Assembly: GCA_964445095.1 (NCBI GenBank)
Contig: CAYUJR010000005.1
Location: 1 to 50,422, forward strand
Direction of reading: 5' to 3'
Origin: an uncultured Gammaproteobacteria bacterium
GTDB taxonomy: Bacteria > Patescibacteriota > Microgenomatia > Levybacterales > JACOYD01
Length of the DNA: 50,422 bases
Positions 21,471 through 50,418 of this stretch are shown here, one piece after another. The first letter of the stretch is position 1, and every line of letters begins with the position of its first letter. A model generated the notes under the pieces. It saw only the letters and a program-made list of their open reading frames with translations. It did no database searches and was not told where the DNA came from. Both the position numbers and the translations under genes were made by a program.

Positions 21471-22061
21471 ATGAAATACAAAGGCTTCACCCTCATCGAG
21501 TTGCTGGTGGTCATTTCTATTATTTCCATCTTGACGGTGGTTTTTTTAATATCTAATCCCTTTACCATGCTGCAAAAAGGCAGAGATACGCAGAGAAAAA
21601 GCGATCTTGGGCAAATACAAAAGGCTTTGGAATCTTACTATAACGATAATAATAAGTACCCCGACTTCGGTAATCCACCAAATGCTCCTGGTAGCGTGAC
21701 CGGATGGGCTATTCCTGGTCACGTAAGTGATAGAGGACTAGGTACTTATTTGCAAAACAATAATTATTTTAAAAGTATTCCCAAAGACCCCAAATTTGAT
21801 GGCAGTAATTGTACTAGTACTACCAGCACAGGCTATCTTTATTTTATGAATAATAGCGATAGGCAAAGATATACCATATTTACGAGACTGGAAAATACCA
21901 ACGATCTGGCTGCTACGCAACCTAAACCCCTACCCAGTGACCCCTATCAAGCCAGCCGTTGTGGGCCAGATGGAAATGCTAATAACTGTAAAACATATAC
22001 ACCGGCGGATAGCGGAACTTGCGGTGGGGTAATTTTTAATTATTGGGTAAATAGTCCATGA
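21471..22061 (+). CDS. Pilin/GspG-like protein
   Basis: G|FTLIELL signal; RDTQRKSDL and PKDP motifs. Confidence 0.85.
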   Translation: MKYKGFTLIELLVVISIISILTVVFLISNPFTMLQKGRDTQRKSDLGQIQKALESYYNDNNKYPDFGNPPNAPGSVTGWAIPGHVSDRGLGTYLQNNNYFKSIPKDPKFDGSNCTSTTSTGYLYFMNNSDRQRYTIFTRLENTNDLAATQPKPLPSDPYQASRCGPDGNANNCKTYTPADSGTCGGVIFNYWVNSP

Positions 22062-32801: not shown

Positions 32802-35135
32802 GTGAGATTTACCAGACACGTGCGATCACGATCTCGGATTTTTCTACTTAGTAAATTTTCAACTCTTGTTTTCTTTAGCATCGTTGGTATAGTTTTATTA
32901 ACCATTATTCTTTTTTTCTGGTACGGTCGTGATTTACCAAAACCCGGTAAGTTAAGTTCGAGTAATCTGACGCAATCAACCCGAATTTTTGACAGAAATC
33001 AAATCCTACTCTACAGCGTCTATAGCTCGGAAAACAGAATTTATGTTAATCTGTCCGATATTCCAAAGTCTCTTCAAGAGGCTACAATTGCCATCGAAGA
33101 TAAAAATTTCTATAAAAATGAAGGTTATTCATTGTCCGGTTATCTGCGGGCTATTCGCGACATGATTTTATTTAGAAAAATAACCGGCGGTTCAACTATT
33201 ACCCAACAGCTTATTAAAAATACCCTACTGACATCCGAGCGAACAATTCCTCGAAAAATTAAAGAATTTATCTTGGCTGTTCAAGTAGACAGAAAATATA
33301 ATAAAGACGAAATCCTCGAGCTTTATCTTAATGCCGTCTCTTATGGAGGAACAGCGGTGGGAGTTGAAGCGGCTGCCCAGACTTATTTTGGGAAGTCGGT
33401 TAAGGAACTTAGCTTAACAGAATCGATTATTTTGGCCGGTTTTCCCCAGCGTCCTTCTTATTATTCTCCTTATGGGCCGGATCCGCAAGCTTATATTGAG
33501 CGTTCTAAACAAGTTTTACGAAGAATCAGAGAAGACGGCTACATCACCAAAAAGCAAGAAGAAGAAGTCGCGCGTGAACTTCCTAATATTAAATTTTTAG
33601 CTCCCACCCAAGGAATAAAGGCACCCCACTTTTCCTTTTATGTTAAGGACTTACTTGTCAAGCGGTTCGGAGAGGAAATAGTAGAACAGGGGGGACTTCA
33701 GGTTGTTACCACCCTTGACTATAAATTACAACAGGAAGCAGAAAAAATTGTTAAAGAAGAGGTAGATAGAGCTCGAGGCCTAAAAGTGGGTAATGGTGCC
33801 AGCGTGGTGTTAAATCCGAAAAATGGAGAAATTTTGTCAATGGCGGGAAGTAAAGACTTCTTCGCGACAGAATCAGCCCAAAACCAAATATTTGAAGGTC
33901 AATTTAATGTAGTAGCGCAAGGACTGCGTCAGCCGGGTTCGGCCATTAAGCCTATTACTTATGCCACGGCCTTAGAAAAAGGTTATACTGCTTCAACGCT
34001 TCTAATGGATACCAAAACAGTTTTTCCCAATCAAGGAGAAGAAGATTATATTCCGGTAAACTATGACGGAAAATATCATGGTCCCGTTCAAATGCGATTT
34101 GCCTTAGGCAGTTCGATTAATATTCCAGCGGTCAAGATGCTAGCCTTAGTCGGGATAAAAGATATGTTAACGACTGCTTCTAATCTAGGTCTCACCACAC
34201 TTACTCCTACTAATGAGAATATTCGGCGTTTTGGTTTATCAATTACTTTAGGCGGTGGAGAAATAAAACTGATAGATTTAGCTGCCGCCTACTCGGCTTT
34301 TGCTAATGCCGGATTAAGGGTGGAACCAGTGGCGATTTTGAAGGTGAGCGATAACAAAGGTAAGATATTATTTGAGTATAAAGAAGCTGAAAGTAAAAAA
34401 CGGGTGTTATCAAAAGAGGTTGCTTTTATGATTTCCCATATTCTGCTTGATAATAATGCTCGGCTGATCACTTTTGGAGAGAATAGTTTTTTAAACGTCA
34501 GAGGGCACACTATTGCCGTTAAGACTGGTACCACTGATGATAAGCGAGATAACTGGACTATCGGTTGGACACCCAATGTGTTAGTAGCTGCTTGGGTAGG
34601 GAATAATGATAATAGTCCAATGGGTAATGTGGCCTCCGGGGTAACAGGAGCAGCTCCCATCTGGCGGCGAATAATTCTGGAAGCCCTCAAGGGAAAACCA
34701 GACGAACAATTTGAAAAACCAGATAACGTGATTGCCATGACAATTGACGGTTTAGGGGGAGGCAGTCCGGTTGATGGACAGTCAACACGAACTGAATATT
34801 TTATTAAAGGCACCGAACCTAAAATTGCGGCCTCAATTTATAAAGAAATTAAAGTTTCCAAAGCCGATACCAATAAAATAGCCAGCCAGTCGGAATTGGA
34901 AAAAGGAGAATATGAGGTGCGTAAGTTTATTGTTTTTAGCGAAAAAGATCCGGTATCCGCTGATTCTAAAAACCGCTGGCAAGAAGGGATTAACGAATGG
35001 CTGACGGAAGCTCACAAAGACGACCCGTTATATCATCCGCCCACCGAAACATCAACCAGGATAATTACTCCAACTCCTACTATTACTCCATCTCCCTCGC
35101 CCACCCCGAACCTGACTCCGACAGTTATTCCTTAA
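32802..35135 (+). CDS. Class A penicillin-binding protein (transglycosylase + transpeptidase)
   Basis: Motifs EDKNFY, GGSTITQQL, SAIK, SIN and KTGT; Pro/Thr-rich tail. Confidence 0.93.
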   Translation: MRFTRHVRSRSRIFLLSKFSTLVFFSIVGIVLLTIILFFWYGRDLPKPGKLSSSNLTQSTRIFDRNQILLYSVYSSENRIYVNLSDIPKSLQEATIAIEDKNFYKNEGYSLSGYLRAIRDMILFRKITGGSTITQQLIKNTLLTSERTIPRKIKEFILAVQVDRKYNKDEILELYLNAVSYGGTAVGVEAAAQTYFGKSVKELSLTESIILAGFPQRPSYYSPYGPDPQAYIERSKQVLRRIREDGYITKKQEEEVARELPNIKFLAPTQGIKAPHFSFYVKDLLVKRFGEEIVEQGGLQVVTTLDYKLQQEAEKIVKEEVDRARGLKVGNGASVVLNPKNGEILSMAGSKDFFATESAQNQIFEGQFNVVAQGLRQPGSAIKPITYATALEKGYTASTLLMDTKTVFPNQGEEDYIPVNYDGKYHGPVQMRFALGSSINIPAVKMLALVGIKDMLTTASNLGLTTLTPTNENIRRFGLSITLGGGEIKLIDLAAAYSAFANAGLRVEPVAILKVSDNKGKILFEYKEAESKKRVLSKEVAFMISHILLDNNARLITFGENSFLNVRGHTIAVKTGTTDDKRDNWTIGWTPNVLVAAWVGNNDNSPMGNVASGVTGAAPIWRRIILEALKGKPDEQFEKPDNVIAMTIDGLGGGSPVDGQSTRTEYFIKGTEPKIAASIYKEIKVSKADTNKIASQSELEKGEYEVRKFIVFSEKDPVSADSKNRWQEGINEWLTEAHKDDPLYHPPTETSTRIITPTPTITPSPSPTPNLTPTVIP

Positions 35136-37011
35136 GCCTAGCCTTAAACCTTCGCTCGAGATTTACTAGCATTTTCTGGCGAATTTGTGAAACTTCAACT
35201 GTTGTTAAATTTCTCGACGGATGTTGGTAGATAATGTGGAAAGTTTTGGTATTCTCGTAAATATCTAAAAGAGAAACACCGGTAATCAATGGACTTTGTC
35301 TTTTTATTTCATTTATTAAGTCTGCGATTTTTACACTCCGATCGGTAACCAGTGCTAAATCTTCAATAACTGGCGGATATTTGGGGATAGATTTATAGAT
35401 TTTTATTAATAGATTTTCCTTAACTGCTTGAGAAAAATTTAGTTCGAATAAAATATAATCCTCGGCAGACACTATAAATTTAGTGGGATCTTTTTTTATT
35501 CCCAATTCCCAAAAAAGTCGCTCAACTATTCCTTTTACCTCAAGAAAGGTTTTTGTATTTGAAATGCCAGATAAATAATATGGTTCTTCTGTTTTGTCCA
35601 GAGTCTTCCCAAGATAAACCTTGCCTAGTTCAAAAAGATTAATTTCTTCTGCGTTTGGTTTATTTTGTTCAAGCGCTTTCTTTAGATTAATAGTCAAGGA
35701 AGGCCGGAGGTACTCAAATTCTCGACTGACCGGATTGTCAACCCGCAGACATTTGTCAGGATTAAAATTTGATTGTCTTAGATCCTCTTCGCTAATTAAG
35801 CTATATGTATAAATTTCGGAAAAACCGGCCGCCGCCAGAATTTGTTTAGTTTTTTGTTCAATTTTGTAGTCCTTAAAATAAGGGATTTGTTTTACAGGTA
35901 TTGCTCCTGTTGGCAGAGTTTTAGAGAAATTATTATAACCATAAAGTCTGGCCACTTCTTCTATGAGATCTTCTTCAATTTGCAGATCATTTCGATAGGT
36001 CGGGATAGTACATTCGATAAGACCCGGTTTCGTTATTCTTGGAGACAAATGCAGTCTTGATAGAAGAGCTAATACTTCTTTCTCGGGGATGATAATTCCT
36101 AAAATAAATGCTAACCGATCAAGCCGAAGTGTTACTTTCCACGGATTAAATACCTTTCTGCGTACATCATACAAAGTACTTACAACTTCCCCGCCCGCAT
36201 ATTCCAGAATTAAGTCAGTAGCACGTCTTATAGCGTCAATAGTTCCTCCGGCGTTCACTCCTCGCTCAAAAATGCTGCTGGCTTCAGAACGAAGTCCTAG
36301 AGCCTGTGATGTTTTGCGAATTAGGACCGGAATTTCAACAGGCGCCCAGATAAAAATTGTTTTCGTATCGTTGTAGGTAGCGCTGTTGTATCCACCTTTA
36401 ATTCCGCAGAGATCGATAGTATCTTTATCATCCCTTACAATAACCGCGTTTTTAGGCAGGTGATAAGAAATGCCGTCAACGCTTTTAAACGGTTCTCCGC
36501 CACTAGCTTGTGTTATAGTCATGCGATGCCCGTTAATGCGGTCGTAATTAAAGGCATGCAGCGGATTACCCAATTCAAACATCACGAAATTTGTAATATC
36601 CACAATGTTATTAATAGGCCGCTGTTCAATTTTGAGAAGCTTATCTTTGAGCCATGGCGGCGATTCTTTGACCGTTACCCCTTTAATAATAAGGCCCGTG
36701 TGTCTGGGGCTTATGGTCAGGTCGACACTAATATCCAATGGGAGAATATTTACCGGTTTTTTCGTAATATCTATGTGAAGCTTAGGATATTTAATTAGCT
36801 TATCTGTAATAGCGGCAATTTCACGAGCAATACCGATAATTGATAGCCAGTCGGGACGATTGGGGGTAATTTCCAGCTCAAAGATGACGTCGTTATTTAT
36901 TTTAGTAATCTTTTCACATCCCAAACCCACCTCGGTCAGGCGTTTAGCCAATTGTTCGGGCGTAAGCTTTATATCAACGTAATCTTTTAACCAAGAAAGC
37001 GGCGCTAACAT
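35125..37011 (-). CDS. pheT: Phenylalanine--tRNA ligase beta subunit (short form without the B2 OB domain)
   Basis: Motifs ITPNRPD, PINNIVDITN and DLIEEVAR, plus a C-terminal anticodon-binding domain. Confidence 0.94.
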   Translation of the reverse strand: MLAPLSWLKDYVDIKLTPEQLAKRLTEVGLGCEKITKINNDVIFELEITPNRPDWLSIIGIAREIAAITDKLIKYPKLHIDITKKPVNILPLDISVDLTISPRHTGLIIKGVTVKESPPWLKDKLLKIEQRPINNIVDITNFVMFELGNPLHAFNYDRINGHRMTITQASGGEPFKSVDGISYHLPKNAVIVRDDKDTIDLCGIKGGYNSATYNDTKTIFIWAPVEIPVLIRKTSQALGLRSEASSIFERGVNAGGTIDAIRRATDLILEYAGGEVVSTLYDVRRKVFNPWKVTLRLDRLAFILGIIIPEKEVLALLSRLHLSPRITKPGLIECTIPTYRNDLQIEEDLIEEVARLYGYNNFSKTLPTGAIPVKQIPYFKDYKIEQKTKQILAAAGFSEIYTYSLISEEDLRQSNFNPDKCLRVDNPVSREFEYLRPSLTINLKKALEQNKPNAEEINLFELGKVYLGKTLDKTEEPYYLSGISNTKTFLEVKGIVERLFWELGIKKDPTKFIVSAEDYILFELNFSQAVKENLLIKIYKSIPKYPPVIEDLALVTDRSVKIADLINEIKRQSPLITGVSLLDIYENTKTFHIIYQHPSRNLTTVEVSQIRQKMLVNLERRFKARLKE

Positions 37012-37012
37012 A

Positions 37013-38050
37013 TTAAAATTGCTCCAATATTCTTAAATCCGGATTGGTCAAAAGTCGCAGGTCATCCATTTGATAACGTAGGGTTACTAATCGGGAAAGA
37101 CCGATGGCAAAGGCGAATCCGTTGAATTCCTTTGGATTATAACCAACAGCTCGCAAGACATTAGGGTGAATCATGCCGGCCGGCATAATTTCACTCCAGC
37201 CGCTTTTTTTACAAAACGAACATCCCTTTCCATGACAAACAGTGCATTCTATATATGTATCAACACCTGGTTCAACAAATGGAAAATTGGTGGTGGCGAA
37301 CTTAATTTTAATTTTTTCCCCCATTAATTTTTTTAGTACATAGGTAATAGTACCAAAAAGATCTGTTAATCGAACATTCTTGTCAACTAAAAATCCCTCC
37401 ACTTGCCAAAATTCAAAACCATGCGAAGCATCTACCTGTTCATAGCGAAAATTTTTCCCCGGTGCAATCACTCTAACCGGAGGTTTGGTTTTTTCCATCA
37501 CTCTACCTTGCATAGCCGATGTTTGGGTTCGCAAAACAATCTCTCCCGGAGTTACTTTTGTTCCGTGAGTATCTAAATACAGCGTCATTTGTGTATCACG
37601 CGAGGGATGATTCTTTAACATATTTAATACCTCAAAATTGTAGTGGTCAGTTTCAATCTCCGGACCATCGGCAGCTTGATATCCGAGTTGTCTAAACACA
37701 TCTACAACTTCATAAAGAACTTGGGTCATGGGGTGGAGGTGGCCGATTTTGGGCGGGATACCCGGAGCGGTAGTATCAATCTGTTGTTTGCGCGTTTTTG
37801 AGAATTGAGAGTTGAGAATTGAGAGTTGAGAATTGAGAGTTTCTTCGATGGTGTTTTTGATCTCATTTGCCAATCTGCCTATTTCCGGACGTTTTTCCTG
37901 AGGAAGCTTAGTAATCTCCTTTAGGGCTTTGGTCAATTTGCCGCTTTTTCCCAAAAATGACAGTTTTAAATATTCCAGCTCTTTCGCGTCTTTAGCATCA
38001 AGAATTAACGGGATAACTTCATTTTTAATTGATATTAATGTTTCTTCCAT
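37013..38050 (-). CDS. pheS: Phenylalanine--tRNA ligase alpha subunit
   Basis: Motifs GHLHP, LRTQTS, FPFVEPG and GFAFAIG. Confidence 0.95.
   Translation of the reverse strand: MEETLISIKNEVIPLILDAKDAKELEYLKLSFLGKSGKLTKALKEITKLPQEKRPEIGRLANEIKNTIEETLNSQLSILNSQFSKTRKQQIDTTAPGIPPKIGHLHPMTQVLYEVVDVFRQLGYQAADGPEIETDHYNFEVLNMLKNHPSRDTQMTLYLDTHGTKVTPGEIVLRTQTSAMQGRVMEKTKPPVRVIAPGKNFRYEQVDASHGFEFWQVEGFLVDKNVRLTDLFGTITYVLKKLMGEKIKIKFATTNFPFVEPGVDTYIECTVCHGKGCSFCKKSGWSEIMPAGMIHPNVLRAVGYNPKEFNGFAFAIGLSRLVTLRYQMDDLRLLTNPDLRILEQF
37798..37841. repeat. Heptamer array (TTGAGAR) x6 in pheS
   Basis: Alternating ttgagaa/ttgagag, encoding TLNSQLSILNSQFS. Confidence 0.9.
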
Positions 38051-38052
38051 AG

Positions 38053-38313
38053 TTACTTTTGTAATTTACGGGCATACTTAAAAATAGCCACCCATAAAGA
38101 TTTAACAAAATTTTGCTCAAGATGGTATTTGCGTGATAGCGTTTGAAGGACTGCTATTTTTTTTTGTTCTCTACCCGAATCTATTATTTTTAGCCCGTGT
38201 TCTTTTTTAAAATTACCGATTTCCGTTACTATAATTTGGCGCTGGGCAAGTAATTCCAATAACTTTTTATCAATATCGTCTACTTGCTGTCTAAGTTTTT
38301 CCAGGAATTCCAT
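38053..38313 (-). CDS. Chorismate mutase (AroQ-class, monofunctional)
   Basis: LRQQVDDID...LAQR...IGNFK...RE pattern. Confidence 0.88.
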   Translation of the reverse strand: MEFLEKLRQQVDDIDKKLLELLAQRQIIVTEIGNFKKEHGLKIIDSGREQKKIAVLQTLSRKYHLEQNFVKSLWVAIFKYARKLQK

Positions 38314-38327
38314 ATTTTAAAATTGTA

Positions 38328-39962
38328 TCATGTTTTTCCCAAAACTCGAATTATTGGACAATAAACTTTTAGTTCTCCCAAGACTTTAATAAGAGCATTG
38401 TCTTTAAAAACTTTTTCTACTTCTACAAAAAAATGATAATCCCACGGTTTGACTCGGCTGGGGCGTGATTCCAGTTTGCTAAGATTAATGTTATAACTCG
38501 CAAAGACATTGAGGATATCTCTTAAAATTCCCACCCGATCGGGAACTGTCAGGAAAAGCAGTGTCTTATTATTATTTAGCCCTTTAATATTAAAAGGCTC
38601 TTTACTAATAACATAAAATTTGGTTTTATTTGCCGGAAAATCTTCAATATTCTTGGCTAAGACATTGAGACGATATTTTTGGGCAGCCAACAAAGAAGCA
38701 ATATATCCACAACCTTTTTTGTCCAGTTTTATTTCTGAAGTTGTACTTTGAGTAGATATAACGGCGGATTTTGGTAAATTTGTTTTTAGCCACTGCCGAC
38801 ATTGAGCAATTGCCTGTGGATGCGATTTAACGATCTGAATATCTTTTAAACTTTTTTCTTTGGAGACTAGATAGTGATGCACAGATAACTGACATGAACC
38901 AACTACATAAAGATTAAATTGGGCAAGATAATCTAATGTTTCAGCAACTGTACCGCCGATCGAATTTTCCGCTGGCACTACTGCCAGTTCTGCGTTGGCG
39001 GTCGCGACGCTATTAAACGCATCATAAACTGTGGGATAGGCAATGAGGCGGTTTTTGGGAAAAATATTTAAGGCCGTTTCATGAGAATAAGTCCCTTCCG
39101 GTCCCAGATAAGCAATTTTTACCTTTGGAGAAATTCCCTTGACGGACATTTTAACTAAAAAGTTTATTGGTAGTTCTTTTTTGGCAAAGTTAGAAAATTT
39201 TGGGAAAGTTTCTTGTTCGTTAACAAACATCTTGATAAAAGAATTCTTATCTTTTCCGGCAACTGTTTGGAGAAGCTCTTGGGCATTGTTTGCAAAGTTT
39301 TTTAGAACCGGTAGGTAGAATGAATTGTACAGTTGAATATCCGCTAAAAGCGAAAGGTCCTGCTCAAGTACTCTGCTCATCGCTAGCGATTGAAGAGAAA
39401 AAATGGGAGTACGGATTTTGGTCGGCAATTTACGATTAGCAATTAAACTTTTTGAAAGTAGTAGATTGATGGCATGAGTTAATGCTTGAATATAGGCGAC
39501 TGTTTTGTCATGCGTTTTGGGATCTGTTTCGACTACCTCAATTCCCGATTTTTGAAAAAGTTTTTTTAAGAAGTCAACATAGCGATTATCCTTTTGACGG
39601 CAAAAAACAATAGTTTGTCCGGCTAGCTCTCCCGGTGTCGGTCCAAAAAGCGGATGCATGCCCAGCGTCCCGCTTTTAGCTGCTTCCATTGCCCGTAACG
39701 GCTTGACTTTAAGCGATGTGATGTCAGTTAATAAAGAGTCGCGTTTAACCAAGGGGGCGATTTGACTAATAACTTGACTTGCCACTGCAATAGGTACACA
39801 GACAATCACGATGTCGGCCCGTTTGGCACAATTTCCTATTGATAGCCGAGTTTTTCTACCGGCAACAAGAACTATTAATCCTTGGTTTTTAAAAAAATTG
39901 GCGAGCCACTGCCCCATTTTGCCAGTTCCGCCGATAAGACCAATGATAGGCTTCTTTTTCAT
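38328..39962 (-). CDS. Fused prephenate dehydrogenase / prephenate dehydratase-ACT
   Basis: N-terminal TyrA motifs GGTGKMG, DITSLK, HPLFGP and HD. C-terminal PheA motifs AYLGPEGTYS, ENS, SHPQA, TKF and LESRP. Confidence 0.9.
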   Translation of the reverse strand: MKKKPIIGLIGGTGKMGQWLANFFKNQGLIVLVAGRKTRLSIGNCAKRADIVIVCVPIAVASQVISQIAPLVKRDSLLTDITSLKVKPLRAMEAAKSGTLGMHPLFGPTPGELAGQTIVFCRQKDNRYVDFLKKLFQKSGIEVVETDPKTHDKTVAYIQALTHAINLLLSKSLIANRKLPTKIRTPIFSLQSLAMSRVLEQDLSLLADIQLYNSFYLPVLKNFANNAQELLQTVAGKDKNSFIKMFVNEQETFPKFSNFAKKELPINFLVKMSVKGISPKVKIAYLGPEGTYSHETALNIFPKNRLIAYPTVYDAFNSVATANAELAVVPAENSIGGTVAETLDYLAQFNLYVVGSCQLSVHHYLVSKEKSLKDIQIVKSHPQAIAQCRQWLKTNLPKSAVISTQSTTSEIKLDKKGCGYIASLLAAQKYRLNVLAKNIEDFPANKTKFYVISKEPFNIKGLNNNKTLLFLTVPDRVGILRDILNVFASYNINLSKLESRPSRVKPWDYHFFVEVEKVFKDNALIKVLGELKVYCPIIRVLGKT

Positions 39963-39978
39963 AGGTGAATTAGGTTAC

Positions 39979-41103
39979 TTAGACTGTAAAAGGTAGAGAT
40001 TTTTGATAACTGTCAAAATTTCGTTTGGTTTCTCTAATATTATCGCCGCCAAACTTTTCCAAGATGGCGCGAGCTAACACGAAAGCCAGCATGGCTTCCG
40101 ATATTACTCCGGCACGGGCCACCACGCACACATCAGAACGCTGTACAGTAGCTTTTGTTTGTTGGCCGCTTGTAATATCAATTGTTGGCAAGGGTTCGTA
40201 TAACGTTGATAGCGGTTTATGAAAAACTCGCGTAATCACATCTTCTCCATTGGTCATCCCGCCCTCAATACCACCCATATTATTTGTTTCACGCTTAATT
40301 TTCTTCATTTTTACAAAAATAGCATCTTGAGACTCTTGTCCGGTCTTACCGGCAATTTCAATCCCATTTCCTATCTCTACCGCTTTAACCGAAGGAATAC
40401 TCATCAAGGCTTGAGCAATCTGGCCGTCTAGCCGCCTGTCGTAGTGAACATAACTGCCAAGGCCAATAGGAATATGATGGGCGATTACCTCAACTACTCC
40501 GCCAAGAGTATTTTTATTTAATCTGGCTTTAGTGATCTCTTGTTTCATCTGTTCTCGGGCTGTTTTATCTAAGCAATGCACGTCAGGATCAGTAGTGTGG
40601 ATATTTTTTACATCCGCAAAAGAATATTTTACCGGTTGGGTTTTTACTTTACCAATTTGGATAGTATGACTGGCGATTTCTATGTCAAAGATCTCTAGCA
40701 GTTTTTTACAAATCGTTCCCACTGCCACTCGCATGACTGTTTCTCGAGCCGAGGCTCTTTCTAAAACATTACGGACATCACTAAAACCATATTTTAGCAC
40801 GCCGGCTAAATCAGCGTGTCCGGGACGAGGTTTGGTAATCCGCTCTTCCCATTTGGCGCTGTCTTCGTTTTTAACTAATAAGGTAATGGGACTGCCAATG
40901 GTTTTGTTAAAACGCAGGCCAGACAAAATCTCTACCTGGTCGGTTTCAATTTTACCTCGCCCTCCCCTGCCAAAATCAAAGGCTCTTTTTTGCAGTTCCT
41001 GATTAATTTCTGCCGCCGAAATTTTAAGATCCGCGGGCATTCCCTCTAGAATTACCACCTCGGCCGGTCCATGAGATTCGCCGGCTGTTAAAAAACGTAA
41101 CAT
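39979..41103 (-). CDS. aroC: Chorismate synthase
   Basis: Motifs TAGESHG, PRPGHAD, RASARET and GGIEGG. Confidence 0.95.
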   Translation of the reverse strand: MLRFLTAGESHGPAEVVILEGMPADLKISAAEINQELQKRAFDFGRGGRGKIETDQVEILSGLRFNKTIGSPITLLVKNEDSAKWEERITKPRPGHADLAGVLKYGFSDVRNVLERASARETVMRVAVGTICKKLLEIFDIEIASHTIQIGKVKTQPVKYSFADVKNIHTTDPDVHCLDKTAREQMKQEITKARLNKNTLGGVVEVIAHHIPIGLGSYVHYDRRLDGQIAQALMSIPSVKAVEIGNGIEIAGKTGQESQDAIFVKMKKIKRETNNMGGIEGGMTNGEDVITRVFHKPLSTLYEPLPTIDITSGQQTKATVQRSDVCVVARAGVISEAMLAFVLARAILEKFGGDNIRETKRNFDSYQKSLPFTV

Positions 41104-41105
41104 TT

Positions 41106-41627
41106 TTATCTCTCCTTCCTAGGTTGCTTTAAGACTAGGTCTATTACTTCAGCCACCTCTTTGGTAGTTAATTTATTAGTGTCTATAACCTCATCTGCCG
41201 CCTCAATATAAAGTTTACGGCGCTGGGCTAAAACTCTTCTCATATCTTCTCTTCTTGAATTGGTGCCGGTCAAAGAAGGTCTGTTTTCGTCCTCACCGAT
41301 TCTTTTGAGCAGTCTGTCCAGGCTGGCTACCAGTAAAAAAATCAGCCCGTTTTTTTTAAGCATCTTTACATTCTCTTGTCGGATAACAACTCCTCCACCG
41401 GTTGAGACAACTCGATTGTCAAGCTTAGCTACCTTTTTACAAACTCCGGATTCTAGATCGCGGAAATACTCCCAGCCATATTTTTGTACCATCCGCGGTA
41501 CAGTCATTCCAGCTTTTTTGATAATCAAATTATCCATTTCCAGAAACTTTTTTTTAAGGCGGCGCGCTAAAATTCTTCCCACAGTTGATTTACCGGCTCC
41601 GCGCATACCAATAAGTACTATGTTCAT
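41106..41627 (-). CDS. aroK: Shikimate kinase
   Basis: Motifs GMRGAGKST, FRDLE, STGGG and RPSL. Start ATG 41627 overlaps the aroA stop. Confidence 0.93.
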   Translation of the reverse strand: MNIVLIGMRGAGKSTVGRILARRLKKKFLEMDNLIIKKAGMTVPRMVQKYGWEYFRDLESGVCKKVAKLDNRVVSTGGGVVIRQENVKMLKKNGLIFLLVASLDRLLKRIGEDENRPSLTGTNSRREDMRRVLAQRRKLYIEAADEVIDTNKLTTKEVAEVIDLVLKQPRKER

Positions 41628-42910
41628 CTTTTCACCACCTCCATTTTTACCCCCAGTCGGGCTAAATCCTGCCAAAAACCAGGGTAGGATTTGCTGATAA
41701 CTTCGGCATTTTTAATCATAATCCCTCTTTTGGCTCCCAGAGCGGCAATAGCCATACTCATGGCCATACGATGATCCTCGTGCGTATTGATAACTCCGCC
41801 CTTAGGGGGTCTACCGGCAATAGTTAAGGAATTTTTGTTATGAGATACCTCAACTCCGATTTTTTTTAACTCGCGGGCAGTATCGGTGATGCGGTCCGTT
41901 TCCTTATAAGTAAGATGACCAATATTTTTGATATGAGTTTTCCCCACAGCGTAGCTCGCCACTGCCGACAATGTCTGCACTGTATCGGGGCAATTTTCCA
42001 TGTCAACAGTAATTCCTCGTAGAGGGAAGTTCCCCTTGACAGTAACTTGATGGTCGGTATCTTCTATTTGGCAACCCATTTGGGTAAGAATGTTGAGAAA
42101 AACTTTGTCTGCCTGGGGCAGTTTTAAGTTCAAATTGCCTACACTAACCTGACCGCCAGTCACCGCTGCTGCAGCAAATAAATAAGAAGCAGAGGAAAAA
42201 TCACCCTCGATAGCCATGGTGGTAGCCTGGTATGCTTGACCAGGCCGAACGATAAAAACTCGATAATTATCATTTTGTACCTTGACACCGAATTTATTCA
42301 TGACCATAATGGTGGTGTCAACATATGGCTTGGAGGGAAATCTACCTTCAATTTTCAGTCGTAATCCCTTTTTGGCAAAAGGGGCAACCAGCAGTAGAGC
42401 CGAAACAAATTGTGAGCTGGCATTTGGTTTAATAGTAATCTCTCCACCTAAGATTTTACCTCCAGTAATTTTTAGCGGAGCATGACCATTTTTTGCCAGA
42501 GACTTAGTTTTAATACTCAAAGCCTTTAGGCTTTGCAAGAGTTCTTTCATCGGTCGCTCGTGCATCCGTTTACTGCCGGAAATAACAGTAGTGCCGGTAG
42601 CTAAAGCAGCAATGGCCGTAATAAATCTCATGGTGGTGCCGGAATTATTAACTTTAATAGTTTTTTTAGGGACAACGAGTTGTCCACCACTGCCCTTGAT
42701 TGTCAGGGTGGCGCCTTGCCGCTTAATTTTTACACCAAAAGCTCGGCAGGCATTGATAGTTTGCATAGTGTCATTGCTAACTAAGGCGTTTTTAACTACA
42801 GACGTTCCTTTGGCCAGTGAGGCAATGACGGCCGCTCTATGAGTCATACTCTTGGAGGGCGGCGCCGTGACTTTCCCCTTGACTTTTGATGGGAAAATTT
42901 TTATATTCAT
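41624..42910 (-). CDS. aroA: EPSP synthase
   Basis: Motifs PPSKS, NSGTTMRF, SSQFVSALL, KETDRI and DHRMAM. Confidence 0.95.
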   Translation of the reverse strand: MNIKIFPSKVKGKVTAPPSKSMTHRAAVIASLAKGTSVVKNALVSNDTMQTINACRAFGVKIKRQGATLTIKGSGGQLVVPKKTIKVNNSGTTMRFITAIAALATGTTVISGSKRMHERPMKELLQSLKALSIKTKSLAKNGHAPLKITGGKILGGEITIKPNASSQFVSALLLVAPFAKKGLRLKIEGRFPSKPYVDTTIMVMNKFGVKVQNDNYRVFIVRPGQAYQATTMAIEGDFSSASYLFAAAAVTGGQVSVGNLNLKLPQADKVFLNILTQMGCQIEDTDHQVTVKGNFPLRGITVDMENCPDTVQTLSAVASYAVGKTHIKNIGHLTYKETDRITDTARELKKIGVEVSHNKNSLTIAGRPPKGGVINTHEDHRMAMSMAIAALGAKRGIMIKNAEVISKSYPGFWQDLARLGVKMEVVKR

Positions 42911-43344
42911 GATTTTCTAATGTGTTTTATTAATTTTTTAAGACCAACAAGATAACTTTGTTCCTTGAGTCCCATGATTCGATCGACGACAATGCCGGTC
43001 AGAACGTCCTTTTTGCGGAAAGCTTCACGCTTAGTGATGTCTGATAGATGCGTTTCTACGACCGGCACTTTAGCATCCTCCAGGCCGTCTCGCAAAGAAT
43101 AGCCATAGTGGGTTAGGGCCCCGGGATTAATCATAATTCCGTCAACTTTACCCCGATATTTTTGAATAGCATCAACTAGTGCTCCTTCGTGATTTGACTG
43201 AAAAAAGACCAGCTTAACTCCTAATTCTTGGGCTAGATTTACCAAGAGTTTTTTGATGTCAATTAGGGTCAGTACTCCATAATGCTTAACACTACGGCGA
43301 CCCAGCATATTTAAATTCGGCCCATTTAAAACTAAAATTTTCAT
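42907..43344 (-). CDS. aroQ: Type II 3-dehydroquinate dehydratase
   Basis: Motifs LNGPNLNMLG, QSNHEG, INPGALTH and ETHLS. Confidence 0.94.
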   Translation of the reverse strand: MKILVLNGPNLNMLGRRSVKHYGVLTLIDIKKLLVNLAQELGVKLVFFQSNHEGALVDAIQKYRGKVDGIMINPGALTHYGYSLRDGLEDAKVPVVETHLSDITKREAFRKKDVLTGIVVDRIMGLKEQSYLVGLKKLIKHIRKS

Positions 43345-44369
43345 ACTTTACTGGCTTTGTCAAAAGCGTCTGACATAATTTTTACGACATCACTACTCGG
43401 TTCATCAACAGTAAACATAAGAGAAAGAGCCAGAAAGGCCTGCCACACCAGCATACCCTTGCCATTAAGAGTTTTAAAACCAGCCTCTCGTGCTTGTTGA
43501 AGCATTGGCGTTTCTACCGGATTATAGATTAGGTCGGCAAAAACAACATCTTTCCTCTTTCCTTTTAAGACACGGAGAGCATTTGCTGAAAGTTGATGAT
43601 TTTCTTTTAGAGAAATGCTAGTTGGTGCAAGAGACGAGTAAGGTTCTTCCGGCTTTTCTGCCTGGCCTTTAGCCGAGGCATTTAACACTAAATCAAAAGT
43701 CCCCGACCCCACGAGTTGCGGAATTTTTTGTTCTTCAATTGTCCAAAGCTTATTTGCTGAATAGAATCTTTCTAAATGAGCTACCAGTCTTGCTGAATTT
43801 TCAGCAGTTCTATTAGCAATCGTGACTCTTTCCACACCTGCATCCAGCAAGGCGGGGACTACGCCTCTGGCTCCGCCGCCTGCTCCAACTAGTAAAACCG
43901 ACAGCCCTTGAAAATTAGGAATGATCGTTTTTAAGTTTTTTATCTCTCCTTCTCCATCGGTGTTATAGCCCACCAGCATTTCTTCTCTGGCCACCACTGT
44001 ATTAACAGCTCCGGCCTTACGTGCCGACTCGTCAATGCTGCCCCCGAGCCTTGGTATTTGTTCTAAAACGAATCTCTTCCAGGGCATACCCACATTAAAA
44101 CCAATACAGTTGGCGTCTTGACGAATAATCTTCATCATTTTTTTGACTGCGCTTTCTGTGGGAATATCTAAAGCTTGATAATAAGCGTGAATTCTCAAAG
44201 CCTCAAATGCCGCATTCCACATATCAGGAGACTTACTATAAGGAGAAATAACCTCTCCAAATAAAAATATACCCATGACATCACCTGACAATTTTTCAAC
44301 CCCTTTTCTATCAGTGTCTAACTTATTAGTAATCAGTGACGCAATTTCTTGTAATTTTTCTACTTTCAT
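43341..44369 (-). CDS. aroE: Shikimate dehydrogenase family protein
   Basis: Motifs SKSP, GAVNTV, NTDG, GAGGGAR, IANRT, DLIYNP and GMLVWQA. Confidence 0.88.
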   Translation of the reverse strand: MKVEKLQEIASLITNKLDTDRKGVEKLSGDVMGIFLFGEVISPYSKSPDMWNAAFEALRIHAYYQALDIPTESAVKKMMKIIRQDANCIGFNVGMPWKRFVLEQIPRLGGSIDESARKAGAVNTVVAREEMLVGYNTDGEGEIKNLKTIIPNFQGLSVLLVGAGGGARGVVPALLDAGVERVTIANRTAENSARLVAHLERFYSANKLWTIEEQKIPQLVGSGTFDLVLNASAKGQAEKPEEPYSSLAPTSISLKENHQLSANALRVLKGKRKDVVFADLIYNPVETPMLQQAREAGFKTLNGKGMLVWQAFLALSLMFTVDEPSSDVVKIMSDAFDKASKV

Positions 44370-44376
44370 AGGCAAT

Positions 44377-44426
44377 AAAAAACCTCCCCTTCTTGGGAGG
44401 TTAAGTATAGCAAGAGCTAACCTCCC
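44377..44426 (-). terminator. Attenuator (terminator plus antiterminator) of the aro operon
   Basis: GGGAGGTTAG ... TAACCTCCC-aagaag-GGGAGG-TTTTTT. Confidence 0.85.
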
Positions 44427-44473
44427 TACGGCGTAAGGTAAAAGAAACCGAAGGTTTTGGTTAGTTTCTGCAT
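44426..44473 (-). CDS. Phe/Tyr-rich leader peptide MQKLTKTFGFFYLTP
   Basis: 15-codon ORF between promoter TTGACA(44513-44508)-17-TATATT(44490-44485) and the terminator preceding aroE. Confidence 0.85.
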   Translation of the reverse strand: MQKLTKTFGFFYLTP

Positions 44474-44490
44474 AAGTTATTTATAATATA

Positions 44491-44841
44491 TCAGATAGTT
44501 TTTATCTTGTCAACAATGACCTTAAAGGCGGTGGGATCGGTTACTACCAAATCGGCCAGAATTTTTCTGTCTAATTCGATGTGAGCCTTCTTCAGTCTAT
44601 TGATAAAAAGACTATAAGAAAGTTCTTCTTTTTTAACAGCCTCCCCAATTCTGGTGATCCACAGTCGGCGGAAATCTCGTTTTCGCAGTTTTCTGCCGTG
44701 ATAAGCGTAAGCTCCGGCGTGCAAAGCGGCTTGACGGGCTACTCGAACAAGCTTACTTTTTGTCCCCCGATAACCCTTCGTTAATTTTAATAACTTTTTG
44801 TGTCTTCGGCGTGATGTTATTCCTCTTTTAACTCTAGCCAT
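44491..44841 (-). CDS. rplT: 50S ribosomal protein L20
   Basis: Motifs [19 protein letters not shown] and LDRKILADL. Confidence 0.97.
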
Positions 44842-47313: not shown

Positions 47314-47370
47314 AAAAAAACCTCCCGCCTGGGAGGAGTTTTGCTATAACGGCGCAAACAACAACCTCCC
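47314..47370 (-). terminator. Attenuator (terminator plus antiterminator) of thrS
   Basis: GGGAGGTT ... AACTCCTCCC-aggc-GGGAGG-TTTTTTT. Confidence 0.85.
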
Positions 47371-47418
47371 TCAAGAGAGCTTGGTTGTCGTCGTAGAAGC
47401 TATAGCGCTTTGTTTCAT
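47371..47418 (-). CDS. Thr-rich leader peptide MKQSAIASTTTTKLS
   Basis: ACG ACG ACA ACC run; promoter TTGACA(47459-47454)-17-TATAGT(47436-47431). Confidence 0.88.
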   Translation of the reverse strand: MKQSAIASTTTTKLS

Positions 47419-47447
47419 AAGATAAAAGTTACTATACCAAAACAACC

Positions 47448-48749
47448 TCAAGTTGTCAATAGATAATTTTTGAAGTCGGAATATAGATTAGATAACGCGA
47501 TTGTTTTTTTCTTTTTTTGTATAATCTCTTTGAGATTTTTGGGCAGAGCCACTTTTTGTTTTAGGGCTCTTTCTATTGTTTCCGGGAATTTGGCCGGATG
47601 GGCTGTGGCCAAAAAAATATTACTTGATGGTTCTTGGTTTTGCTGAATATACGCTTTGAGTCCCAAGTAAGCTACGGCACTATGCGGATCGAGAATATAA
47701 TGGTACCTTTTGTCAACTTCCCTAATGGCTTGAACAGTTTCTTCGTCGGTAAAACTTTTACTAAAAATATCTTTTTGCATTAATTTAAGATTATTTTGAT
47801 AAAGCTCGCGGATTCTGGCTAAATTATTGGGATTACCTACATCCATGGCATTAGAAAGAGTTTGTTTGGCAGGTTTCGGTTTAAAAGCTCCGGTTTGAAC
47901 AAAATGGGTAAAAACGTCATTAATATTGGTGGCAGCTACCAGTCGAGCCTTAGGTAGACCCATTTTTTTAGCAAGAACCCCGGCTGTAAAATTGCCCAGA
48001 TTACCGCAGGGAATAGAAAAAACCACCGGCCTTGCTTTGTTTGGCAGTTGAGCCCAGGCGTAAAAATAATAAAAAACTTGCGGCAGGAGACGAGCAATGT
48101 TAATAGAATTAGCAGAAGTCAGGGTTAATCTTCTTTTTAATGTTTTATCTAAAAATGCTTCTTTGATCAGTTTTTGACAGTCATCAAATGTTCCTTCTAT
48201 CTCGAGAGTAATAATATTCCCTCCCATGGTAGTAAGTTGAAGTTCCTGCGTTGGACTAACCTTTCCCTTGGGATAAAGTATAATCACTTTAACTTGGGGA
48301 ACATTATAAAATCCCGCTGCCACCGCGCTGCCGGTGTCGCCCGAGGTAGCCACCATGACAGTGGTAGTTTTTTTATTGCTATTGGCTAAAGCGGAAGTGA
48401 GTCTGGCCATAAAACGGGCCCCAAAATCTTTAAACGACAGCGTGGGGCCATGAAAAAGTTCTAAAACCCAAAGGTTATTATCTAATTTTTTAAGATTGAC
48501 TGGGAAGTTCATGCTTTCATTGACAATTTGTCGTAAGTTTTTAGTTGCGATATCGCCTGCAAAAAGCATTTTTGCCAGCTCTAAGGCCACCTCGGTAAAA
48601 GAGAGAAAGCGAAATTTTTCTATCATTTTGGCTGAAAGACGGGGAATCACTCGTGGCAGATAAAGTCCTCCGTCCGGGGCCAGACCGGTAAGAGTAGCTT
48701 GAGCCAGAGAGGCAGATGGGCTTTCTCGGCCAGTACTGTAATAGTCCAT
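47448..48749 (-). CDS. thrC: Threonine synthase
   Basis: Motifs GLAPDGGLY, ELFHGPTLSFKD, ATSGDTG, NSINIAR and TAHPAKF. Confidence 0.95.
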   Translation of the reverse strand: MDYYSTGRESPSASLAQATLTGLAPDGGLYLPRVIPRLSAKMIEKFRFLSFTEVALELAKMLFAGDIATKNLRQIVNESMNFPVNLKKLDNNLWVLELFHGPTLSFKDFGARFMARLTSALANSNKKTTTVMVATSGDTGSAVAAGFYNVPQVKVIILYPKGKVSPTQELQLTTMGGNIITLEIEGTFDDCQKLIKEAFLDKTLKRRLTLTSANSINIARLLPQVFYYFYAWAQLPNKARPVVFSIPCGNLGNFTAGVLAKKMGLPKARLVAATNINDVFTHFVQTGAFKPKPAKQTLSNAMDVGNPNNLARIRELYQNNLKLMQKDIFSKSFTDEETVQAIREVDKRYHYILDPHSAVAYLGLKAYIQQNQEPSSNIFLATAHPAKFPETIERALKQKVALPKNLKEIIQKKKKTIALSNLYSDFKNYLLTT

Positions 48750-48813: not shown

Positions 48814-48874
48814 TGACCGCTGGTGGACTTGAACCACCGACCTTCACAATGTCAATGTGACGCTCTAGCCAACT
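48814..48874 (-). pseudogene. tRNA-Val(GAC) 3' fragment lacking the first ~13 nt
   Basis: AGTTGGCTA GAGC G TCACA TT-GAC-AT TGTGA AGGTC GGTGG TTCAAGT CCACC AGCGGTC A. Confidence 0.75.
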
Positions 48875-48880
48875 CAGGCG

Positions 48881-49055
48881 TGGGCATTGTAGGATTTTGG
48901 ACCTACGGCCTGTCGCACCTGCCCGCCGCGGTGTGCGCCTGCATGGATTTGAACCATGGACCTCTTCGATGTCAACGAAGCGCTCTACCCCTGAGCTACA
49001 AGCGCATTTTGACAGGCGGGCATCAAGCGACTACTCTACCCTAAGCTAAGCGCCC
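48881..49055 (-). other. Split tRNA-like gene whose anticodon loop encloses the intact tRNA-Val
   Basis: 5' half GGGCGCT TA GCTT AGGGTA GAGT A GTCGC (49055-49027). 3' half GCGAC AGGCC GTAGG TCCAAAAT CCTAC AATGCCC A (48916-48881). Confidence 0.65.
48934..49005 (-). tRNA. tRNA-Val(GAC)
   Basis: Full cloverleaf GCGCTTG TA GCTC AGGGGTA GAGC G CTTCG TT-GAC-AT CGAAG AGGTC CATGG TTCAAAT CCATG CAGGCGC A; CCA not encoded. Confidence 0.93.
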
Positions 49056-49746: not shown

Positions 49747-49766
49747 ATTTACACCTCCTTTCCATT

Positions 49767-49835
49767 AAAAAACCTCCCGTTGGGGAGGTTTCATTTTGCG
49801 GAGCATTTTAAAAAACTACCGCAATAGACCTCCCC
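49767..49835 (-). terminator. Attenuator upstream of the 105-aa orphan
   Basis: GGGGGAGGT ... AAACCTCCCC-aac-GGGAGG-TTTTTT. Confidence 0.78.
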
Positions 49836-49884
49836 CTTGGAAGGCAATAATAATTCCAATAATTTGATTGCTTTGTAATGACAT
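49816..49884 (-). CDS. Ile-rich leader peptide MSLQSNQIIGIIIAFQGGGLLR
   Basis: Leaderless ORF 7 nt after TTGACA(49920-49915)-17-TATTAT(49897-49892); five ATT codons. Confidence 0.75.
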   Translation of the reverse strand: MSLQSNQIIGIIIAFQGGGLLR

Positions 49885-49933
49885 TATTTTGATAATAACA
49901 TACTGCTAAATATTTGTCAAAAACAAAACAATT

Positions 49934-50236: not shown

Positions 50237-50261
50237 TCTATTCACCCCCTTTCAAAGCATT

Positions 50262-50332
50262 AAAAAACCTCCCGTTGGGGAGGTCTTAAAAATTACTTTA
50301 TTTTAGATTTTAATTATCTAAAAAGACCTCCC
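50262..50332 (-). terminator. Attenuator upstream of the 100-aa orphan
   Basis: GGGAGGTCTT ... AAGACCTCCCC-aac-GGGAGG-TTTTTT. Confidence 0.78.
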
Positions 50333-50418
50333 GTAAAAGCTCCCAAAAGGAGAGCCAATAATAGAAGGCTAAGTAAAATTTCAACTTTCTTAAAATCTAA
50401 AACAATGCTTTTTGTCAT
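50314..50418 (-). CDS. Leu-rich leader peptide MTKSIVLDFKKVEILLSLLLLALLLGAFTGGLFR
   Basis: 34-codon ORF at the window edge, so the start and promoter cannot be verified; 9 Leu in 11 codons. Confidence 0.65.
   Translation of the reverse strand: MTKSIVLDFKKVEILLSLLLLALLLGAFTGGLFR

Follow-up and report, generated by a model that had tools for sequence, protein, structure and literature searches.

Between the ribosomal protein gene rplT and a run of aromatic-pathway and pheST genes in the window (the whole 50,422-nt stretch of DNA analysed here, from a Levybacteria-like bacterium of the Candidate Phyla Radiation, or CPR) lies a short leader that, judged by its sequence and by folding models, is quite probably a ribosome-mediated, or leader-peptide, transcription attenuator of the kind represented by pheM and pheL in Escherichia coli. 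Most likely it would turn on the aromatic and Phe-tRNA-ligase genes that follow when the corresponding amino acids run short. A promoter-like site, a small upstream open reading frame (uORF), a terminator, mutually exclusive helices with compensatory changes, conserved aromatic codons and the gene context all emerge from the computations. The mechanism itself is the textbook one; what is new is the host group, the make-up of the operon and the compactness of the layout.

The leader and its parts

Coordinates are those of the window unless another contig or locus is named, and 'own leader' means the leader after rplT in the window. It and all of the genes around it are on the minus strand (-). 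Its parts are as follows.

44491..44841 (-), rplT, ribosomal protein L20 (NCBIfam TIGR01032, 1.1e-42)
44513-44508 (-), -35 hexamer TTGACA (promoter scan)
44490-44485 (-), -10 hexamer TATATT, TG-extended (promoter scan)
44473 (ATG) to 44428-44426 (TAG) (-), uORF of 15 codons, MQKLTKTFGFFYLTP + TAG (sequence, ORF list)
44452-44438 (-), control codons TTC GGT TTC TTT TAC, i.e. F G F F Y (sequence)
44433..44464 (-), segment 1 candidates CTAACC (44464-44459), CCT (44454-44452) and CCTTAC (44438-44433) (constrained and free minimum-free-energy folds)
44426-44417 (-), segment 2, GGGAGGTTAG, 5' strand of the putative antiterminator (sequence, folds, covariation)
44404-44395 (-), segment 3, TTAACCTCCC, partner of segment 2 or of segment 4 (terminator scan, folds, covariation)
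44402-44381 (-), terminator AACCTCCC-AAGAAG-GGGAGGTT, followed by TTTTATT (terminator scan)
44388-44377 (-), segment 4, GGGAGGTT plus the T-run: 3' arm of the terminator and possible Shine-Dalgarno (SD) site of aroE (terminator scan, SD spacing)

The promoter scan scores the -35/-10 pair at 11 of 12 consensus matches with a 17-nt spacer. The -35 hexamer falls within the last codons of rplT, the 3' end of which reads ...GTTGACAAGATAAAAACTATCTGA, and the TG of the extended -10 is supplied by the rplT stop codon (TGA, 44493-44491), two bases upstream. From the -10 to the ATG of the uORF is 11 nt. At its other end the uORF shares one base, 44426, with the switch: the G of its TAG is the first base of segment 2. 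Segment 2 can pair for 9 bp with segment 3, in the sequence and in the folds alike, and segment 3 doubles as the 5' arm of the terminator, a hairpin of 8 pairs, 5 of them G-C, with a 6-nt loop. The original prediction, which was read from the letters of this DNA and from its open reading frames, had already proposed the promoter embedded in the end of rplT, the overlap of the stop codon with segment 2, and the 9-bp alternative pairing, and all three hold good. So does its remark that Phe and Tyr codons are present and Trp codons absent. It had also offered two upstream partners for segment 2, and here it was half right: CCTTAC pairs with GTAGGG in the constrained fold, but AACCTTC drops out, the ribosome-free minimum-free-energy fold using CTAACC:GGTTAG and CCT:AGG instead.

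If the leader works as an attenuator, transcription would begin a few bases upstream of the ATG of the uORF, from the promoter embedded in the 3' end of rplT. With Phe- and Tyr-tRNAs plentiful, the translating ribosome would reach the TAG, and its footprint would cover segment 2. Segments 3 and 4 would then be left to pair, and hairpin and U-run would halt RNA polymerase before aroE. Were the ribosome to stall instead at TTC-GGT-TTC-TTT-TAC, segment 2 would stay free and could pair with segment 3 as soon as that was made; the terminator would not form, and the whole operon, aroE to pheT, would be transcribed. In this read-through conformer the GGAGG of segment 4 would be single-stranded, and ribosomes loading onto the first gene may bind there.

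Conservation in relatives

We collected 95 related rplT loci, 15 from related genomes and 80 from named metagenome-assembled genomes; nearly all of the latter are titled Candidatus Levybacteria/Levyibacteriota or Patescibacteria group (Microgenomates group in the NCBI taxonomy). At least 250 nt of downstream sequence was available for 92, and removal of three duplicates left 89 distinct loci. Each was searched for a uORF with its start at any position from -10 to +200 relative to the rplT stop and with at least five aromatic residues (F/Y/W) in a stretch of seven, or four in seven. The stricter requirement holds at 49 of the 92 loci and the looser at six more, our own included, which together give 53 of the 89 distinct loci. 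All 53 of these leaders, own leader among them, have a terminator after the uORF: a hairpin, then at least five Ts. The aromatic codons on which the original prediction had staked its case are thus conserved in the orthologous leaders. Dinucleotide shuffling of the same loci produced a mean of 0.77 such uORFs in 92, and at most five, over 100 rounds; the reverse complement produced 9 in 92. As to own leader itself, 22 of 5000 dinucleotide shuffles of its 144 nt contained a comparable frame (ATG start, 8-40 codons, at least four of five consecutive residues F/Y/W), and genome-wide such aromatic-run ORFs occur at 0.083 per kb of strand.

Of the 371 positions in the control windows, each seven residues long, phenylalanine takes the most, 181, against 85 for Tyr and 26 for Trp. 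Tyr occurs in 46 of the 53 peptides and Trp in 26. A search for TrpA (PF00290) was positive in 10 of 26 genomes with a Trp-containing leader and in 4 of 26 without, which is no significant association (Fisher p 0.12). Outside the aromatic run and the bases of segment 1, both conserved, the peptides vary freely in N-terminal residues and in length (13-38 residues). Two layouts recur. In 33 leaders the uORF frame continues through segment 2 (...YFWFYFTSQxGR...); in the other, with 20 leaders counting our own, the stop codon lies 1-5 nt before segment 2.

Downstream come, for the most part, aromatic-pathway genes or pheS. According to Pfam, the first two ORFs after the leader include an aromatic-pathway family or pheS/PheRS in 35 of 53 loci; in nine more they are a PfkB kinase and then a DAHP-synthase-like ORF, in eight they match no family, and in one the locus is too short. 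Wherever pheS follows the leader in relatives it is the first or second ORF. At loci without a leader, pheS, or a greA-like gene and then pheS, comes directly after rplT.

Several details of these loci deserve mention on their own account. The PfkB-first loci are L023, L027, L030, L031, L053, L055, L056, L070 and L081, and the ORF after the PfkB gene in all nine is about 310 residues long, with a DAHP-synthase-like IIAGPCS motif and no Pfam call at 1e-5. A second aromatic leader occurs farther down the locus in L022 (3465-3579), L049 (5111-5219), L078 (1457-1567) and L019 (1513-1750); L019 has two tandem leaders with mixed W/H/Y/F codons. ORFs of 71-152 residues without a Pfam family stand between leader and pheS or aro genes in L024 (3009-3233), L034 (3125-3337), L045 (2998-3438), L062 (3010-3441), L022 (2966-3406) and L078 (932-1387), and fall into at least three unrelated small families. 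The idea that the small ORFs after leaders form one family was rejected: only three pairwise matches turned up among the 20 compared.

Folding and covariation

Each of the 53 leaders was folded with the stretch under the ribosome kept single-stranded. A ribosome placed at the stop codon leaves the terminator intact in all 53. In RNA ending just before segment 4, stalling at the first, middle or last aromatic codon gives 2:3 pairing in 51, 52 and 48 of the 53 leaders, and a ribosome at the stop codon gives it in two. In own leader, a ribosome with TAC (44440-44438) in its A-site has its footprint edge just short of segment 2, and one with TAG in its A-site covers segment 2. The predicted energies are -16.0 kcal/mol for the antiterminator and -13.2 kcal/mol for the terminator hairpin. 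Folding of the alternative structures had been the first check suggested for the original prediction, and the outcome fits attenuation.

Segment 2 has changed in step with segment 3 in evolution. The two form duplexes averaging -11.75 kcal/mol with their own partners, against -10.21 (sd 0.18) when partners are permuted among leaders (0 of 2000 permutations as low) and -5.0 when the upstream sequence is shuffled. An alignment by MAFFT with RNAalifold recovered just nine pairs from 33 leaders, because variable loop lengths shift the columns of the terminator, and so we built a covariance model, R1, from 33 relatives' leaders and used its alignment of 65 distinct rows. That alignment was fitted to helices 1:2 and 3:4, and in it, biased towards both as it is, 93.3% of their positions are paired (95.5% in the protector helix 1:2), with double-sided changes at 9 of 12 pairs and a covariation score of 0.294 against 0.164 for shuffled alignments (0 of 500). 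Helix 2:3, which is absent from R1, is 84.1% paired, with double-sided compensatory changes at 5 of 7 pairs and a score of 0.224 against 0.148 (0 of 500); registers slid to either side score 0.164 at most. Since the sequences are related, these shuffle and permutation counts should not be read as probabilities.

Applied more widely, R1 has a match at E<=0.001 in 47 of the 151 genomes that make up a sample of the window's class (46 of 150 without the genome G106), and in a sample of the phylum it matches 6 of 151, four of them outside the class. Each of the 12 best loci in the class sample has an in-frame, ATG-started F/Y/W uORF upstream, even though its start codon lies outside the model.

The downstream operon

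Gene families were assigned with NCBIfam and Pfam profiles, and the order after the leader is aroE-aroQ-aroA-aroK-aroC-tyrA/pheA-CM-pheS-pheT.

43341..44375 (-), aroE-like shikimate dehydrogenase (NCBIfam TIGR00507 6.2e-49, below its cut-off; Pfam Shikimate_dh_N and Shikimate_DH)
38053..43344 (-), aroQ, aroA, aroK, aroC, fused tyrA-pheA and chorismate mutase (NCBIfam, Pfam)
38313-38053 (-), chorismate mutase gene, CM (Pfam CM_2, 1.4e-20)
35125..38050 (-), pheS and pheT (NCBIfam TIGR00468 7.5e-77 for pheS; ORF list)

The genes overlap or lie at most 16 nt apart, and from the leader through pheT the scan of the minus strand lists, besides the leader terminator, three weaker terminator-like sites, each within a coding region. 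The aro-pheST operon described in the original prediction stands as context, but its description needs amending: the chorismate mutase gene had been overlooked, and tyrA/pheA is a single gene encoding a fused prephenate dehydrogenase/dehydratase. Eight biosynthesis genes were counted between the leader and pheST, from aroE to chorismate mutase, pheS being the ninth gene downstream.

The true start of aroE is uncertain. Four candidates present themselves: TTG 44375, ATG 44369, TTG 44281 and ATG 44266. The first is 7 nt and the second 13 nt beyond the GGAGG of the terminator 3' arm; the third is preceded by an AAGGGG of its own. The shikimate dehydrogenase domain begins only at about residue 36 of the frame. 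An AroE of this type occurs in one of 40 relatives, where the match starts at residue 46 and the relative's protein has a short N-terminus. The frame at 44270-44375 (-) amounts to a possible N-terminal extension of about 35 residues before that domain, and it stays open back through the whole leader (379 residues).

The source assembly (818 kb in 44 contigs, 94.8% complete) has shikimate pathway steps 3-7 and the Phe and Tyr branches. No TrpA (PF00290), DAHP synthase (PF00793) or dehydroquinate synthase (PF01761) was found in it. The first two steps of the pathway, not found, might be encoded in the missing 5% or performed by enzymes of another type; possibly, too, an intermediate is taken up.

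Comparison with known systems

A scan of the complete E. coli K-12 chromosome with R1 yields just two matches at E<=10, and by annotation these are pheM (1799153-1799261, 30.7 bits, genome-wide E 0.09) and pheL (2737607-2737721, 29.7 bits). Conversely, the Rfam model of the Phe leader, RF01859, aligns from end to end with own leader and with five leaders among 13 related loci (33.7-44.0 bits), in each case below its gathering score of 55. These reciprocal likenesses, sub-threshold though the second is, are our grounds for describing the element as a pheM-like leader-peptide attenuator.

The resemblance to pheM extends to position and design. Both leaders come directly after rplT and upstream of pheST (pheST-ihfA in E. 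coli), and both encode a peptide of 14-15 residues with a Phe/Tyr run, MQKLTKTFGFFYLTP in our case. After the pheM stop codon come, in this order, GGAGGCT, AGCCTCC-CAGT-GGAGGCT and a T-run; own leader has the same design, CCUCC between GGAGG-type repeats. The differences are several. Own leader is separated from pheS by the biosynthesis genes. Its promoter reaches into the 3' end of rplT, and inspection by eye shows no terminator for rplT itself before the uORF, whereas in E. coli a hairpin and T-run can be seen just past rplT. Its uORF has no SD site; its terminator runs right up to the first gene, unlike that of E. coli, where pheS begins some 230 nt farther on; and its host is a CPR bacterium. 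Because the genome-wide E value of the pheM match is only 0.09, the likeness does not establish common descent with pheM, and the two leaders may have converged upon Phe codons and GGAGG/CCUCC helices.

According to one study, the Phe-tRNA synthetase genes have pheM as their attenuator (PMC5371410). The peptide of pheL, too, has a Phe run, and it precedes a prephenate dehydratase gene, an activity that is also encoded in our operon. Another study reports pheL in gamma-proteobacteria and only a few candidates beyond the proteobacteria (PMC3082878). Classical attenuators have been predicted before trpS and leuS in Streptomyces (PMC1262725); there, as here, leader peptide, antiterminator and terminator precede an aminoacyl-tRNA synthetase gene, but the amino acids and the phylum are others, and pathway and synthetase genes are not combined in one operon. 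Full-text searches turned up no report of leader-peptide attenuation in CPR/Patescibacteria, subscription journals and supplements being outside their scope.

The usual control of pheS in Firmicutes is the T-box, a leader that senses tRNA charging and acts by antitermination. It is likewise a cis-acting element before aminoacyl-tRNA synthetase genes, but own leader is only about 100 nt long, and the sensor proposed for it is the translating ribosome. Neither a T-box (RF00230) nor a riboswitch matches at 44200-44700 up to E 10. At the gathering level Rfam has no match at the locus, and in the whole window it matches two tRNAs only. A normal tRNA lies at 48934-49005 (69.7 bits). Adjacent to it is a short tRNA match (48821-48872 (-), model positions 7-64, 30.8 bits), just over threshold, which may be a truncated or unusual tRNA.

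Weighing the attenuator against other explanations

A number of observations count against attenuation. Own leader has three Phe codons and one Tyr codon only, with a Gly codon interrupting them. It matches R1 weakly (28.4 bits, E 0.027), and although RF01859 aligns along its full length, it does so at 20.9 bits (E 0.48). The uORF lacks an SD site, and any 5' untranslated region before it is very short; its translation would depend on leaderless-type initiation. The protector helix 1:2 is weak in own leader, and ribosome-free RNA ending before segment 4 folds into the antiterminator, so untranslated RNA may read through, unlike in the classic trp model. Full-length RNA with a stalled ribosome still favours the terminator at equilibrium; a switch would therefore have to work kinetically, as classical attenuators do. 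The leader is missing from 36 of the 89 related loci and hence is not essential in the lineage. And kinship among the sequences inflates the shuffle statistics.

In 39 of the 53 leaders a -35/-10 pair is found no more than 40 nt upstream of the uORF start, and in 29 of the 39 the -10 is separated from the start codon by 6-13 nt. With its -10 just 11 nt before the ATG, our own uORF would be near-leaderless, and uORFs of this family, which have no SD site, probably begin with the RNA itself or very close to its 5' end and would be translated by leaderless-type initiation.

The alternative that fares best is that control is mainly translational: the 3:4 hairpin would hide the ribosome-binding site of aroE, pairing of 2 with 3 would free it, and termination would be of minor importance. 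The spacing invites this. GGAGG is followed at 7 nt by TTG 44375 and at 13 nt by ATG 44369, no further SD-like motif occurs upstream of 44369, and in 17 of the 53 leaders the first ORF (of at least 60 residues) begins 4-14 nt after the last G of the 3' arm, 11 of them at 7-8 nt. A sequestered SD site had in fact been suggested in the original prediction, which noted GGGAGG 13 nt before the aroE ATG and again 13 nt before thrS (GGGAGG 47326-47321, ATG 47307). Both distances are correct, and the spacing in relatives is in keeping with them, but the suggestion holds only in part: in 36 of the 53 loci the next ORF starts farther away, in some with an SD site of its own, and aroE may really begin at TTG 44281, behind its own AAGGGG. 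Moreover, a T-run after a hairpin is the mark of an intrinsic terminator, and at least five Ts follow all 53 hairpins. As the main mode of control, then, we regard translational regulation as improbable; as an addition to attenuation, sequestration of an SD site in the 3' arm is possible.

It is very unlikely that the hairpin merely ends the thrS-infC-rpmI-rplT operon as a plain terminator, that the promoter after it is unrelated, and that the uORF is a chance frame. True, the hairpin lies about 100 nt past rplT, and short F-rich frames are not rare in T-rich DNA, as the count from the reverse complement attests. But the terminator is downstream of the promoter rather than upstream, aromatic uORFs are present at 53 of 89 loci against about one in 92 after shuffling, segments 2 and 3 covary, and most of the relatives that lack the leader have no terminator between rplT and pheS, the gaps there being 4-70 nt.

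We give as little credence to a sensor other than the ribosome—a tRNA in the T-box manner, a protein or a small molecule—with the F/Y codons preserved for structural reasons. The control-codon stretch GGTTTTAC can pair with the downstream GTAAAACC in many relatives, and its bases therefore have a structural role too; and at least one T-box-like element, a partial match of 28.2 bits, is found elsewhere in the genome. At the locus itself, however, T-box and riboswitch searches came back empty, the leader is only about 100 nt long, synonymous and F/Y/W exchanges preserve the aromatic frame across relatives, and the 12 top R1 loci have their in-frame ATG uORFs even though the start codon is outside the model. 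It is scarcely credible that the product of the uORF, a small hydrophobic peptide, is itself functional: the ATG-started frame is intact and its position conserved, but N-terminus and length vary, and only the aromatic run and the bases of segment 1 are kept.

Sister leaders in the same genome

The GGGAGG/CCTCCC/GGGAGG-T scaffold of the attenuator recurs in its own genome, combined with Thr, Ile, Leu and Arg codon runs; the list below also gives three other candidate leaders of the genome, on contigs C13, C6 and C12.

47321-47459 (-), thrS leader, promoter TTGACA, 17-nt spacer, TATAGT
47418-47371 (-), thrS leader uORF MKQSAIASTTTTKLS, with a run of four Thr codons (sequence)
49765-49900 (-), Ile-run leader (IIGIII), uORF MSLQSNQIIGIIIAFQGGGLLR (R1, 40.7 bits)
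50260-50400 (-), Leu-rich leader, 34-residue frame (R1, 38.4 bits)
contig C22, 6352-6480 (-), candidate leader with RRR uORF before GNAT and M20 peptidase (ArgE/LysK-like) genes
contig C13, 700-829 (+), candidate leader with LLLL uORF before fusA
contig C6, 39787-39900 (-), terminator-bearing leader before lysW-lysX
contig C12, about 21609-21800 (-), partial T-box match, 28.2 bits, cut at the locus end, before a 488-residue ORF without Pfam family

In the thrS leader the uORF stop, TGA, is followed directly by GGGAGG and then by CTCCTCCC-AGGC-GGGAGG and seven Ts (47336-47321). A Thr-run uORF with terminator before thrS occurs in one of 16 relatives (L146: MNQAVTLTTTTTR). The Ile-run leader precedes a strong SD site and a 105-residue ORF (49746-49429), and the Leu-rich leader a strong SD site and an ORF of about 100 residues (50245/50227-49934); neither ORF belongs to a Pfam family.

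Taken together, these leaders allow a tentative reading, which we think rather doubtful as a whole: a lineage-wide, modular family of attenuators in CPR bacteria of the Microgenomates type, in which one GGGAGG/CCUCCC/GGGAGG plus U-run switch is fitted with interchangeable Phe/Tyr/Trp, Thr, Ile, Leu or Arg cassettes and placed before biosynthetic operons, pheST, thrS and small ORFs. The uORFs would be leaderless, the 3' arm would be the SD site of the first gene, and the rplT-leader-pheST layout would be ancestral, shared with pheM. If this is true, one RNA decision sets both transcription and translation.

Significance

CPR/Patescibacteria are usually described as metabolically minimal, and to our knowledge almost nothing is known of their gene regulation. 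A conserved leader-peptide attenuator would imply that transcription and translation are tightly coupled in CPR cells, and that the synthesis of aromatic amino acids and the supply of PheRS are under genuine control by tRNA charging. R1 offers a ready computational marker of amino-acid-responsive genes in uncultured genomes, and the leader family points to small proteins without a known family that may be under such control. Finally, one may ask whether an attenuator so like pheM, even in its place behind rplT, is ancient.

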